Source: an uncultured Gaiellaceae bacterium
GTDB taxonomy: Bacteria > Actinomycetota > Thermoleophilia > Gaiellales > Gaiellaceae
Assembly (NCBI GenBank): GCA_963771185.1
Contig: CAVYSL010000011.1
Coordinates: 15,303-79,302, forward strand
DNA: 64,000 bases
Direction of reading: 5' to 3'
Shown here: positions 47,148 through 53,768 of the stretch, one piece after another
How the letters are laid out: each line of letters begins with the position of its first letter
Position numbering within the stretch: the stretch's first letter is position 1
The notes under the pieces: model-generated
Seen by the model: only the letters and a program-made list of their open reading frames with translations
Databases searched by the model: none
Told to the model about the DNA's origin: nothing
Translations under genes and position numbers: made by a program

Positions 47148-50073
47148 GCTCGATCCGCTCCTGGAGGGAGTGCGCGATCTCCTCACGCGCGTTGGCGATC
47201 GCGTCGACCGCGAGCCGGGCGCCGGACAGGGTGGTGATGCAGGGGACGCGGGCCGAGAGTGCCGCCTGCCGGATCAGGGCGCCGTCCCGCCGGGCACCGG
47301 AGCCCTGCGGCGTGTTGACGACGAGGTCGCAGCGGCCGGCGCGGATCGCGTCGACGACCGCGTCGCCCTTCGCAAGCGTCGCGACCTCGAGCCCCGCATC
47401 GCGGAGCACGGCCGCCGTGCCGCCGGTCGCGAGCAGGTCGAAGCCGAGCTCGGCCAGCGCCTGCGCCACCGGCGCGATCGCAGCCTTGTCCAGCTCGCGC
47501 ACCGAGAGGAACGCCGTGCCGCCTGTCGGCAGCGGCCGCCCTGCGGCCCGCTCGGCCTTCGCGAAGGCCGTCGGCAGGTCGGCGGCGCTCGCCATCACCT
47601 CGCCGGTCGAGCGCATCTCGGGGCCGAGCACCGGGTCGGAGCCGGGGAAGCGGGCGAACGGCAGCACCGCCGCCTTGACGCTCACCAGCTCGGGGCGCCG
47701 CTCCTCGGGCAGCTCGAGCTCGTGCAGGCGGGCGCCCGCCGCGAGCCGCACGGCCGCGTCGACGAGGTTGACGCCGGTCGCCTTGCTCGCGAACGGCACC
47801 GTCCGCGAGGCGCGCGGGTTGACCTCGATCACGCTGACCTCGTCGCCGACCAGAGCAAGCTGGACGTTCAGCAACCCGACGACGCCGAGCGCGGGGCCGA
47901 GCCGGCGGACGACGCGGCAGACCTCGGCGTACGCCTCCTCGTCCAGCGACGGGGCCGGCAGCACGCACGAGGAGTCGCCCGAGTGGATCCCGGCCTCCTC
48001 GACGTGCTCCATCACGGCACCGATGTGGACGGAGACGCCGTCGCAGAGCGCGTCGACGTCGATCTCGAGCGCCCCTTCGAGGAAGCGGTCGACGAGGACG
48101 GAGCCGGTGACGCCGGCCATGGCCGCCCGCACCTGCTCGTCGTCGTAGCAGACCCGCATCGCCCGGCCGCCGAGCACGTAGGAGGGCCGGACGAGCACGG
48201 GGTAGCCGACCCGCTCCGCGATCTCGACCGCTGCCTCTGGCGCGTCGGCGATTCCCCACTCCGGGCAGCGGACGTCGAGCTCCGCCAGCAGCCGCCCGAA
48301 GCGCTCACGGTCCTCGGCCAGGTCGACGGCCTCGTACGGCGTCCCCAGCACCTTGAAGCCGGCCGCCTCGATCGCGCGCGCGAGCTTCAGCGGCGTCTGG
48401 CCGCCGAACTGGATCACGACCCCCTCCGGCTGCTCCCGCTCGCAGACTGCGAGCACGTGCTCGACGTCGAGCGGCTCGAAGTAGAGCCGGTCGGAGGTGT
48501 CGTAGTCCGTCGACACCGTCTCCGGATTGCAGTTGACCATGATCGCCTCGTAGCCGAGCGCGCGGAAGCTCTGCGCCGCGTGGACGCAGCAGTAGTCGAA
48601 CTCGATCCCCTGGCCGATCCGGTTCGGGCCGGAGCCGAGGATGACGACGCGCGGCTTGCCGGTCGCCGGCACCGGCTCGTCGGCCTCGCCGCGGGTCGAG
48701 TAGTAGTAGTTCGAGTCGGCTGCGACCTCACCCGCGCACGAGTCGACGCGCCGGTAGACGCGCTCGCCCTGTGGCGGGCCGTCGAGGCGCAGCTGCTCCA
48801 GCTCGCGCCGGAACCACGGGTGCAGGTCGTCGGGAAGATCGTCGAGCGCCGCCCAGGGGGTCACCGCTCCCGCATCGAGCTCGCGGCTCGACCAGGCTTT
48901 CCAGAACGCCTCCTGGAAGGTGCGGCCGATCCCCATCGCCTCGCCCACCGACTTCATCTGCGTCCCGAGCGTCGTGTCGGCGCCGGGGAACTTCTCGAAG
49001 GCGAAGCGGGGGAACTTGACGACGACGTAGTCGAGCGTCGGCTCGAAGCTCGCCGGCGTCGTCTTCGTCAGGTCGTTCGGGATCTCGTCGAGCGTGTAGC
49101 CGACGGCGAGCTTGGCGGCGACCTTCGCGATCGGGTAGCCGGTCGCCTTCGAGGCGAGCGCCGACGAGCGCGAGACGCGCGGGTTCATCTCGATCACGCG
49201 GATCTCGCCGGTCTCGCGGTCACGGGCGAACTGGATGTTGGAGCCGCCCGTCTCGACACCGACGGCGCGGATGACGGCGATCGCGGCGTCGCGGAGCTCC
49301 TGATAGGCCTCGTCCGAGAGCGTCAGCTGCGGCGCGACCGTGACCGAGTCGCCGGTGTGGACGCCCATCGGGTCGAGGTTCTCGATCGAGCAGACGATGA
49401 CGACGTTGTCGCGGCGGTCGCGGATCACCTCGAGCTCGAACTCGTCCCAGCCCTTGACCGACTCCTCGACGAGCACCTGGCCGATCGGGCTCTCGCGCAG
49501 CCCGCGCTCGACCTGGGCGCGCAGCTCGGCTGCGTTCGAGACGAAGCCGCCGCCGTGGCCACCGAGCGTGAACGCCGGGCGCACGACGGCCGGCACCGCG
49601 ACGCCGGCGAGGTCGTCGACGCTCGTGACGATCCGCGAGCTCGGCACCACGAGCCCGCAGCTCTGCACCGCCTCGCGAAAGAGCTCACGGTCCTCGGCGC
49701 GGCGGATCACGTCCACGGGCGCGCCGAGCAGCTCGACGCCGAGGTCCTTGAGGATCCCCGCGTCGGCCAACTCGATCGCGAGGTTGAGCGCCGTCTGGCC
49801 GCCGAGGGTCGGTAGCAGCGCGTCGGGACGTTCGCGGCCGAGGACGTCGGCGACGCCCTCGAGGTCGAGCGGCTCGAGGTAGGTCGCGTCGGCGAAGCCG
49901 GGGTCGGTCATGATCGTCGCCGGGTTGGAGTTGACGACGATCGTGCGGAAGCCGTCCTCGCGCAGCACCTTCAGCGCCTGGCAGCCCGCGTAGTCGAACT
50001 CGCACGCCTGCCCGATCACGATCGGCCCCGAGCCGATCAGGCAGATCGACCTGATGTCCTGCCTACGCGGCAC
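47128..50073 (-). CDS. carB: carbamoyl-phosphate synthase large subunit (the only copy with one open frame)
   Basis: GTG at 50073: (M)[29 protein letters not shown]..., two ATP-grasp halves, MGS-like C-terminus. It is the in-frame C-terminal 981 aa of the 1385-aa ORF 47128-51285. The first about 400 aa of that ORF are Arg-rich read-through. Confidence 0.9.
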
Positions 50074-50304
50074 TTCGCACCTCCTCCACACGAATCTGCT
50101 CGACCCAGTGCTCGAGGATCGGCCACGCGTCGTGCGGCCCTGGGCCGGCCTCAGGGTGGAACTGCACCGAGCGGGCGCGCAGCTCCGGGAAGTCGAAGCC
50201 CTCGACGGTGCCGTCGTAGAGCGAGACGTGCGTCGCCTCGGCGTCGTCCGAGGGCGCGACCGCGAAGCCGTGGTTCTGGCTCGTGACGAGCACGCGGCCG
50301 CCCC
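47887..50304 (-). repeat. direct repeat unit 1 (about 2.4 kb): carA tail plus the first about 730 codons of carB
   Basis: Aligns by eye with 50305-52709 (for example 48481-48600 vs 50901-51020, and 50100-50290 vs 52520-52708). Confidence 0.8.
50063..50293 (-). pseudogene. carA: carA 3' fragment (last about 76 codons of the CPSase small subunit), fused upstream to the truncated carB copy
   Basis: ORF 50063-50293: (M)[75 protein letters not shown]. There is no N-terminal 300 aa. Confidence 0.85.
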
Positions 50305-52708: not shown

Positions 52709-52734
52709 ACGGTGGCGCGTTGAGGAAGGCGGCC

Positions 52735-53768
52735 GCACCTCCGTCGACCCAGCGTCTCCGAGGATCGGCCACGCGTCGTGCGGGCCCGGGCCCGCCTCGG
52801 GGTGGAACTGCACCGAGCGGGCGCGCAGCTCGGGGAAGTCGAGGCCCTCGACGGTGCCGTCGTAGAGCGAGACGTGCGTCGCCTCGGCGTCGTCCGATCG
52901 GCGCGACCGCGAAGCCGTGGTTCTGGCTCGTGACGAGCACGCGGCCGCTGCGCCGCTCGAGCACCGGGTGGTTGGCGCCGCGGTGGCCGAACGGGAGCTT
53001 GAACGTCTCGTGGCCGGTCGCGAGGCCGAGCAGCTGGTGGCCGAGGCAGATCCCGAGCACCGGCACGCGGCCGAGCAGCTCGCGCGACCGTCGCGACCTC
53101 GTCGCCGCAGCGGCTCCGGGTCGCCGGGGCCGTTCGAGAGCAGGACGGCGTCGTAGCCGGCGAGCTCGTCGGCGTCGGCCGTCGTGCGGGTAGACGGTCA
53201 CGTGCGCGCCCGCGCCGGCGAGCCGGCGCAGGATCGAGCGCTTGCAGCCGTAGTCGACGACCGCGACCCGGATCGAGCCCGCGTCGCAGTAGACGTACGG
53301 CTCCGGCGTGGAGACACAGGCCGACGAGCGCCGCGCCCGCCATCGACGGCTGCTCGCCGACCGCGGCGAGCGCCTCGTCCTCGTCCAGCGCCGCCGGCGA
53401 CGGCCGCCGCGCGCATCGCGCCGCCCTCGCGCAGGCGCAGGACGAGCGAGCGCGTGTCGATCCCGGTCAGCGCGACGATCGCCGCGCTCGGCGAGCCAGT
53501 CCGTCCACTCCGGCCCGCGCGCCTCGCGCATCAGCACCGCCTTCGCGTGCGCGCCGGGCGACTCGGCGCGACCGGCGGCGACGCCGTAGTTGCCGACCAT
53601 CGGCGCGGTGAAGCAGACGAGCTGCTCGGCGAAGCTCGGATCGGTGACGGTCTCCTGGTAGCCGGTCATCGCGGTCGTGAAGACCGCCTCGCCGAACGCG
53701 ACGCCCTCGGCGCCGACCGACTCGCCGCGGAAGATCGTCCCGTCCTCGAGCGCGAGGAAGGCGCTCAT
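52735..53768 (-). pseudogene. carA: full-length carA (CPSase small subunit) with at least five frame changes and no clean stop
   Basis: ATG at 53768: [19 protein letters not shown]...[19 protein letters not shown] | junk | [47 protein letters not shown] | junk | [39 protein letters not shown]...[15 protein letters not shown] | junk. All are in or out of the frame of ORF 51282-54218. Confidence 0.8.

Follow-up and report, generated by a model that had tools for sequence, protein, structure and literature searches.

Pieces of carA and carB are present more than once on the minus strand of the window, the 64-kb stretch of Gaiellaceae DNA analyzed here, and this repetition is a true property of the sequence as given. 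The alleles, junctions and errors around it indicate that the repeat is very probably a false tandem duplication arising from a strain-mixed long-read metagenome assembly, with no biological amplification behind it.

The repeat unit is 2.4 kb long and consists of the carA 3′ tail followed by carB codons 1-729. It occurs twice, as copy A (47886-50300) and copy B (50306-52711), which align over 2419 columns at 94.4% identity with 113-119 mismatches and 7-9 gap openings (self-BLAST and gapped alignment; E=0). No further high-identity repeats were found in the 64-kb window. The carA tail occurs three times, as T1 (50063-50300), T2 (52486-52711) and T3 (52734-52950), with pairwise identities of 93-98%. 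T3 lies inside the full-length carA, and its differences from T1 and T2 are mainly synonymous. These results bear out the preliminary description, which had proposed from the letters alone a direct repeat of about 2.4 kb covering the carA tail and about 730 carB codons, three carA C-terminal ends, two carB starts, now placed at 50073 (GTG) and 52496 (ATG), and a divergence of a few percent with indels between the copies. The features of the region, in ascending coordinates, are as follows.

47128..50073, minus strand: intact carB of 981 aa with a GTG start at 50073; allele A, located where the contig is clean and well supported (single-frame tblastn HSP, NF003671)
47886..50300, minus strand: repeat unit copy A, carA tail T1 (50063-50300) plus carB codons 1-729 (BLAST, gapped alignment)
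50301..50305, minus strand: junction 1, where the end of copy-B carB at codon 729 is joined to T1 with a few unassignable bases (AGGG) between
50306..52711, minus strand: repeat unit copy B, T2 (52486-52711) plus carB codons 1-729 (52496-50307), a consensus-like allele
52712..52734, minus strand: junction 2, filler between the end of full-length carA and T2
52735..53768, minus strand: full-length carA including T3 (52734-52950), riddled with 1-nt insertions; a third allele
53769..56560, minus strand: pyrC, pyrB and pyrR, unrepeated, the remainder of the most error-dense zone (private indels, GC3-phase)
56561..60214, strand not specified: lower-quality tail with a membrane-protein gene, DUF2007 and a metallo-beta-lactamase-fold gene, about 1 frameshift/kb (private indels, phase changes)

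The two junctions differ on one side and agree on the other. At junction 1 (50301-50305), carB ends in GCGCTCG and, after AGGG, carA resumes with GCGGCCGCGTGCTCGTC. A GCTCG(AG) match common to the carA sequence upstream is found there, in agreement with the CTCGAG-like microhomology noticed earlier near 50300. At junction 2 (52712-52734), about 23-26 nt of unassignable filler intervene. This filler had been regarded as a possible carB remnant, but in a shuffling test it showed no significant resemblance to the carB 5′ end (p=0.23). A second copy of it is absent from the window and from related contigs L001-L010, and to our knowledge it does not resemble adapter sequence. The left sides, carB codon 729 at junction 1 and the carA end plus filler at junction 2, are unrelated in sequence, and yet both junctions resume carA within ~4 nt of each other. 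Such a common restart fits a boundary defined by an alignment or a graph and is not predicted by two independent recombination events. Exact-match searches returned 0 matches to junction 1 in GTDB species genomes and JGI metagenome contigs and 0 matches to junction 2 in JGI metagenome contigs, although the strictness of exact matching makes these searches only weakly informative. A mobile repeat, such as an IS element, was considered as the cause and rejected, as the 2 kb pyrR-DUF2007 interval holds a membrane-protein gene also present in L005-L007 and no transposase.

The divergence between the copies has the character of variation between functional alleles. In carB, 89 of the 106 differences between copies A and B (84%) fall at codon position 3, so the third-position bias already remarked upon is real and strong; 83 (78%) are synonymous and 23 non-synonymous. 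Since the differences are mostly third-position and synonymous, the copies look like alleles of functional genes. Among the indels separating them, only the in-frame ones (15 nt, 3 nt) look natural. An in-frame insertion of 15 nt in T1 is missing in copy B, in L011 and in all other relatives. The identity between copies A and B (95.0%) is similar to that between copy B and L004 (95.4%), a single-copy carB from another sample, and to that between L001 and L004 (95.3%). L004 is the nearest neighbor of copy B in 413/500 bootstraps; a cherry of A with B is recovered in only 137/500, so by sequence the two copies are not robustly each other's closest relatives. With a divergence that resembles that between populations and is dominated by synonymous changes, copies A and B behave as allelic variants of one functional locus. 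Among the ten sequences compared, private substitutions are least numerous in copy B (8, vs 38 in copy A). This is only suggestive of copy B being a multi-strain consensus, as its consensus-like character could simply reflect the presence of its close relative L004 in the comparison set.

The quality of the sequence changes at the same places at which the repeat is joined. The density of private frameshifting indels was used as a proxy for read support and consensus quality at the junctions. The left flank (40000-47127, 7.1 kb) has one such indel, and copy A has 0, as does the remainder of carB. Copy B then has 5 (2.1/kb), and carA-pyrC-pyrB-pyrR at 52735-56560 has 33 in 3.8 kb (8.6/kb). The steps in density from 0 to 2.1 to 8.6/kb sit exactly at 50301-50305 and 52712-52734, with binomial p=2e-15 for left vs right of 50300 and 6e-4 for copy B vs the right zone. 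GC3-phase segmentation, an independent measure, places the same break at 50295, and its segments in the 53769-56560 zone are 50-300 nt long. Private 1-nt indels continue further right, at 57470, 57151, 59499 and 59165. The spectrum of these errors is strongly skewed, with 22-24 one-nt insertions vs 2 one-nt deletions in the right zone and 4 vs 1 in copy B. Sister contigs that are noisy throughout have the same insertion bias (29 vs 2 in L005, 20 vs 1 in L008), and the frameshifts thus appear to be technical noise of the kind that affects low-quality contigs elsewhere in this assembly series. Relative to L007, substitutions in the frameshifted pyrC, pyrB and pyrR are 65-72% third-position, as in clean genes, which points to a pattern of purifying selection retained in these genes.

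The predicted products follow the same gradient. As had been stated for the distal carB, one frame is kept throughout (981 aa, 50073-47128), vs four frame segments for codons 1-729 in copy B (tblastn). Residues 1-981 of the distal CarB fall in one tblastn HSP with 91-94% aa identity to relatives, and the protein scores 1381.3 bits against NF003671 (cutoff 599) and, in the NF003671 / TIGR01369 test, also 1241.8 bits at a cutoff of 1027. The CarB pieces of copy B match profile positions 1-170 and about 517-812 and remain below cutoff because they are fragments. The T1 and T2 peptides match only positions ~285-360 of the 361 in TIGR01368 (71-72 bits vs a cutoff of 307), so that NCBIfam places them at the C-terminus of the CPSase small subunit, as C-terminal fragments. 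Residues 1-327 of L007 CarA align to 53768-52782 at merely 60% apparent identity, a value that results from frame changes (tblastn). A protein search for a full-length CarA with the unusual C-terminus of allele A returned fragments of <=94% identity and no exact match.

Comparison with related loci, a check proposed with the preliminary description, gives a single carA-carB pair throughout. All 11 related Gaiellaceae contigs compared (L001-L011) encode one carA (345 aa) and one carB (981 aa), and the operon order is pyrR-pyrB-pyrC-carA-carB-pyrK-pyrD. One of them, L011, matches the window at 99.4% identity across 12 kb of flank (32188-44500) and is collinear and single-copy, and its alignment to the clean part begins at 50301. 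A separate CarB search of GTDB genomes gave 75% aa identity as the best among the matches listed (MFD Gaiellaceae MAGs). Taken with the exact-match junction searches, absence from relatives constitutes weak negative evidence, given strain diversity. Within the locus, conservation is highest in the repeated unit; that the unit forms a conserved block with sharp bounds is only suggestive, as the coincidence is approximate.

These observations are best explained by a true locus that would be an ordinary single-copy pyr operon of a Gaiellaceae bacterium, and by a contig that chains, end to end, three separately supported consensus pieces from co-occurring haplotypes. In transcriptional order, the very noisy piece 3 would run from pyrR to carA and stop just beyond the carA stop codon; piece 2, moderately noisy and consensus-like, would extend from the carA tail to carB codon 729; and piece 1 would contain the carA tail, the whole of carB and then ~50 kb of clean sequence. 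The overlap of the pieces would lie in the best-conserved block of the locus. Owing to the ~5% divergence between the haplotypes, the overlaps would have been concatenated rather than merged, leading to three carA tails and two carB 5′ parts. The quality steps at the junctions, the allelic copies and the single-copy locus in all relatives are matters of observation, and at the level of the assembler they may be due to uncollapsed overlaps or to repeat-graph edges. The source data are probably of Nanopore/Flye type, a platform and assembler suggested by the relatives only, as those with the same contig naming were produced with Nanopore R10.4.1, Flye --meta and one round of Medaka (PMC12313526). 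For long-read metagenome assemblers, metaFlye included, Trigodet et al. (bioRxiv 10.1101/2025.04.22.649783) document long direct repeats that are false, along with unsupported indels.

Real duplications could take more than one form. In a recent heteroallelic tandem duplication, ~5%-diverged Gaiellaceae DNA would have been placed beside the resident carAB by illegitimate, microhomology-mediated recombination, and the frameshifts would be sequencing noise. The copies would then be divergent from the start, so the synonymous bias and their non-sister relationship fit equally well, and the GCTCG microhomology at junction 1 is something that real illegitimate recombination also yields. This origin is nonetheless improbable: it requires two separate events with different left junctions and the same right breakpoint, and it leaves unexplained both the quality steps at the two junctions and the poor quality 4-8 kb beyond the repeat. 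The arrangement is also missing in the 11 relatives, including the contig with the 99.4% identical flank, and its junctions are absent from the public collections searched. If true, it would preserve a physical trace of DNA uptake between strains at an essential locus of an uncultured soil actinobacterium. Quite as improbable is a real duplication or triplication of initially identical units in one strain, with copies made artificially different by mixed-strain polishing. Amplification of identical units is expected to give a common unit start, and polishing of this kind would add synonymous-biased strain polymorphisms and could render one copy consensus-like, but junctions 1 and 2 should then match, which they do not. 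Foreign reads should moreover taint both copies, whereas copy A has 0 frameshifts and private in-frame features; the worst noise lies outside the repeat, and the relatives are single-copy.

Of the two readings offered in the preliminary description, an old tandem amplification whose proximal copies are decaying pseudogenes is hardly credible. In favor of decay, copy B has frameshifts and is truncated, and with indels counted the divergence of the copies is 5.6%. Relaxed selection, however, predicts ~1/3 of changes at each codon position, and 84% are observed at position 3. Decay of bacterial pseudogenes is reportedly deletion-biased, whereas the indels here are nearly all +1 insertions and match the noise of sister contigs; neither changes spread over codon positions nor a mixed or deletion-biased indel spectrum was found. 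The unduplicated, essential pyrB, pyrC, pyrR and carA are more frameshifted still, with substitutions of the purifying type, and copy B has its closer relative in L004, not in copy A. An old decaying amplification is therefore contradicted by the codon-position and indel-spectrum tests, by the relationships of the copies and by the noise beyond the repeat. The other reading, a strain-chimeric or poorly polished assembly, is backed by the allele pattern, the quality steps, the junctions and the single-copy relatives.

The biological weight of a false duplication at this locus is small, as what lies beneath it is an ordinary pyr/car operon. The practical consequences concern users of the contig or MAG, who would count spurious carA and carB genes, call pyrR, pyrB, pyrC and carA pseudogenes, and could infer a nonexistent pyrimidine/arginine auxotrophy or gene amplification. 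Several signs of such an artefact can be read without access to reads, namely synonymous-biased divergence between ‘paralogs’, steps in indel density at junctions, a +1-insertion spectrum, and differing junctions that have one breakpoint in common. L011, an independent assembly from the same species, also loses quality over this operon, which suggests that long-read soil metagenomes repeatedly run into trouble at conserved operons common to co-occurring strains.

In gene order, in the 11-nt overlap of the carA stop with the carB start and in domain content, the locus resembles the canonical actinobacterial carAB/pyr operon, as in 11/11 relatives. It is unlike the canonical form in its CarB, which in this lineage has 981 aa and lacks a part of the oligomerisation domain that corresponds roughly to residues 432-521 in E. 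coli; this shortening is a lineage trait with no relation to the repeat. In Salmonella and E. coli, tandem duplication-amplification under selection proceeds through a microhomology-mediated junction followed by RecA-dependent expansion. Genuine bacterial amplifications of this kind share with the present repeat the head-to-tail direct arrangement of a few kb, a brief stretch of microhomology at one of the junctions and truncation of a gene where the units meet. However, they have identical junctions between units and near-identical copies that are mutually closest, whereas here the junctions differ, the copies are not robustly each other's closest relatives and show ~5% allelic divergence, and the quality shifts at the joins. 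The resemblance to the false duplications described by Trigodet et al. (bioRxiv 10.1101/2025.04.22.649783) extends to the long direct repeat within a contig, copies that represent haplotypes of one locus, an abrupt change of support at the repeat borders, and biologically unsupported indels that break reading frames. In that study, the error class was demonstrated by read clipping and coverage in a PacBio HiFi benchmark, whereas the present analysis uses error-density steps, allele phylogeny and single-copy relatives as proxies, and the contigs of this lineage appear to be Nanopore/Flye. A related class comprises the false duplications that arise from uncollapsed haplotypes in assemblies of diploid genomes.

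The carA-carB repeat on the minus strand of the window, whose G+C content is 70.8%, is very probably a false tandem duplication made in assembly. The nested direct repeats reported in the preliminary description were reproduced in all substantive points by self-BLAST, gapped alignment, and NCBIfam profiles, and the locus is arranged as follows:

53768 to ~52735, minus strand: full-length carA, of which the last 217 nt are tail T3
52712-52734, minus strand: filler, ~23-26 nt
52711-52486, minus strand: second carA tail (T2), overlapping the start of carB copy B
52496 to 50307 (codon 729), minus strand: carB copy B
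50301-50305, minus strand: 5-nt join
50300-50063, minus strand: third carA tail (T1), overlapping the start of the complete carB
50073 (GTG) to 47128, minus strand: complete carB, 981 aa

Self-BLAST aligns 47886-50300 (copy A) with 50306-52711 (copy B) at 94.4% identity over 2419 columns, and the gapped alignment contains 113 mismatches and nine gaps. Gene identities are confirmed by NCBIfam profile matches: the distal carB, at 1381 bits, clears the cutoff of 599, the carA tails align with the final ~75 positions of the small-subunit profile, and the copy-B fragments align with carB profile positions 1-170 and ~517-812. No other high-identity repeats were found within the 64-kb window. Two pairs of adjoining minus-strand genes look like ordinary tandem paralogs by sequence: one of BMP-family (PnrA-like) substrate-binding lipoproteins, assigned from sequence motif alone (955-2169 and 2087-3148; ~75% nucleotide identity over 750 nt), and one of aminopeptidase-like genes, a function named from sequence alone (60234-61376 and 61339-62517; ~72% over 700 nt).

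The differences between the copies had been described as often falling at third codon positions, and indeed 89 of the 106 substitutions that separate the carB parts do so, with 83 synonymous and 23 non-synonymous. At 5% divergence, yet with substitutions mostly third-position and synonymous, copy B is unlikely to be a drifted, truncated, and frameshifted paralog. Both carB sequences diverged while coding for a working enzyme. When the copies were compared with ten single-copy relatives (identity, bootstrap n=500), copy B was 95.4% identical to one of them (L004) and 95.0% to copy A; L004 was its nearest neighbor in 413/500 bootstraps, and copies A and B paired in only 137/500. The distance between A and B is about the same size as that between contigs from different samples, and the copies thus read as alleles, not decaying paralogs. 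The three carA tails also differ from one another mostly synonymously, and the locus therefore draws on at least three haplotypes. Private substitutions number 8 in copy B, the lowest count among ten sequences compared, and 38 in copy A; copy B also carries the majority state at 77/120 A/B differences, which is suggestive of a collapsed multi-strain consensus. The repeated unit seems to correspond roughly to the part of the locus that is best conserved among relatives: mean pairwise identity is ~92% within it, 83-88% upstream, and 81-88% downstream.

Consensus quality changes along the same boundaries. A GC3-phase HMM run over the whole window gave gene-sized frame segments up to 50294 and ~40 short segments in 50295-60214.

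Window-private frameshifting indels, counted in MAFFT alignments with relatives
40000-47127, left flank: 1, ~0.14/kb
Copy A and remaining carB: 0, 0/kb
Copy B: 5, 2.1/kb
52735-56560, carA, pyrC, pyrB, and pyrR: 33, 8.6/kb

Binomial tests separate the sequence left of 50300 from that to its right (p = 2e-15), and copy B from the right zone (p = 6e-4). Past 56.6 kb the rate drops to ~1/kb, and clean sequence resumes past ~60.2 kb. The contig is thus made of three stretches of differing support, switching exactly at both repeat junctions. Among the indels, single-base insertions number 22-24 and single-base deletions two, at sites that are not homopolymers, and uniformly noisy sister contigs have the same spectrum (29 insertions and 2 deletions in L005, 20 and 1 in L008). 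Compared with the related contig L007, the third-position share of substitutions is 65-72% in frameshifted genes and 58-76% in clean left-flank genes. Since the spectrum is of a technical type and this share is kept, the frameshifts are consensus errors rather than pseudogenization. Across this assembly series (window 50306-60214; L005, L008, and L010), nearly all of the consensus noise takes the form of a single extra G, C, or A outside homopolymers. Deletions are usually expected in Nanopore data, and insertion-dominated noise is unusual. The clean left 50 kb holds few possible frame breaks, one being an NTP-transferase gene (38124-38790, minus strand) covered by two tblastn frames split near 38414-38470. 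Also in an otherwise clean part, pyrD (45634-46482, minus strand) stops 18 codons before all compared relatives (…SLQMSVS-stop versus …SLQMSVSKSGNEMQKVPGNRPKVTA-stop).

Junction 1 reads carB ...GCGCTCG, then AGGG, then GCGGCCGCGTGCTCGTC..., with GCTCG(AG) common to the junction and to carA sequence upstream of the tail. At junction 2, a noisy carA 3' end is followed by the filler, which has no match elsewhere in the window or in the ten relatives; the earlier suggestion of a carB remnant finds no support, as similarity to the carB start is not significant (p = 0.23). On their left sides the junctions carry unrelated sequence, but in both of them carA resumes at nearly one position (within ~4 nt), on a GCGGCCGC palindrome. 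This NotI-type palindrome (52955-52948 and 50308-50298, minus-strand GCGGCCGC) may occur there by chance, the genome being 71% G+C, or may reflect a methylation or basecalling problem. Exact searches found no match for junction 1 in GTDB species genomes or JGI metagenome contigs, and none for junction 2 in JGI metagenome contigs.

The preliminary description had proposed comparison with related genomes, and there carA-carB is single-copy throughout. An exact match of the neighboring mIHF protein led to ten long contigs in ENA (ERZ250394xx-5xx, named contig_N). Each of them carries pyrR-pyrB-pyrC-carA-carB-pyrK-pyrD in that order, with a single carA (345 aa if unbroken) and a single carB (981 aa if unbroken). 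A further contig from another sample (L011), found by exact match of the MoxR protein, is single-copy, collinear with the window, and 99.4% identical to it over 32188-44500. The long stretch in which L011 aligns to clean window sequence starts exactly at 50301, and over the same pyr/car operon L011:1-8125 (window 45020-55212) is ~5% divergent with many 1-nt indels. Since L011 also degrades here, independent assemblies of the species repeatedly run into trouble in this region; in these assemblies, conserved operons common to co-occurring strains seem to be places where errors recur. The operon in L001 (L001:1707-4459) may likewise have been misassembled or rearranged: it has a pyrB-pyrC fusion call (724 aa), pyrC and carA are separated by an additional 193-aa nucleotidyltransferase-like ORF, and private indels ≥3 nt are numerous. 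CarB is 981 aa in the window (47128-50073, minus strand) and in six clean relatives among L002-L009, and the CarB of this Gaiellaceae lineage lacks approximately residues 432-521 of the oligomerisation domain of E. coli CarB (1073 aa, 1bxr_A). Gene content varies within the lineage: a ~680-aa membrane-protein gene between pyrR and DUF2007 (56667-58712, plus strand), its frame broken by two 1-nt indels (57151, 57470), is in place in L005-L007 and absent from L002-L004, L009, and L010.

Of the two readings offered earlier, an old decaying amplification conflicts with both the codon-position test and the indel spectrum, and a strain-chimeric or poorly polished assembly is backed by allelic copies, quality steps, junction structure, and single-copy relatives. 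Genuine amplification is disfavored because identical junctions would be expected and the observed ones differ, and two independent recombination events because a common breakpoint would not be expected. Differing left sides with a common restart are instead the pattern expected of an alignment- or graph-defined boundary. What probability remains belongs mainly to two readings. A real heteroallelic duplication from foreign strain DNA would likewise hold distinct alleles, and is improbable beside these junctions; a real duplication whose copies were blurred when reads of mixed strains entered the polishing, which could also make one copy consensus-like, is just as hard to credit. With an assembly artifact preferred, the locus would be an ordinary carAB of which three overlapping pieces, from different haplotypes, were chained instead of merged. 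The repeat is then, with high confidence, not a real genomic feature; the contig would over-count carA and carB, and its right-hand 6-10 kb would falsely suggest pseudogenized pyrimidine genes.

Among the matches listed, the named GTDB genomes that come closest are long-read MAGs of the Microflora Danica project, whose contigs are named in the same way, and the window itself presumably shares their platform. The project combined Nanopore R10.4.1 data with Flye 2.9.2 --meta --nano-hq and a single Medaka round (PMC12313526). Long-read metagenome assemblers including metaFlye have been documented to produce long direct repeats that are false and accompanied by drops in coverage, and to emit indels that lack support from any read and break ORFs (bioRxiv 10.1101/2025.04.22.649783).
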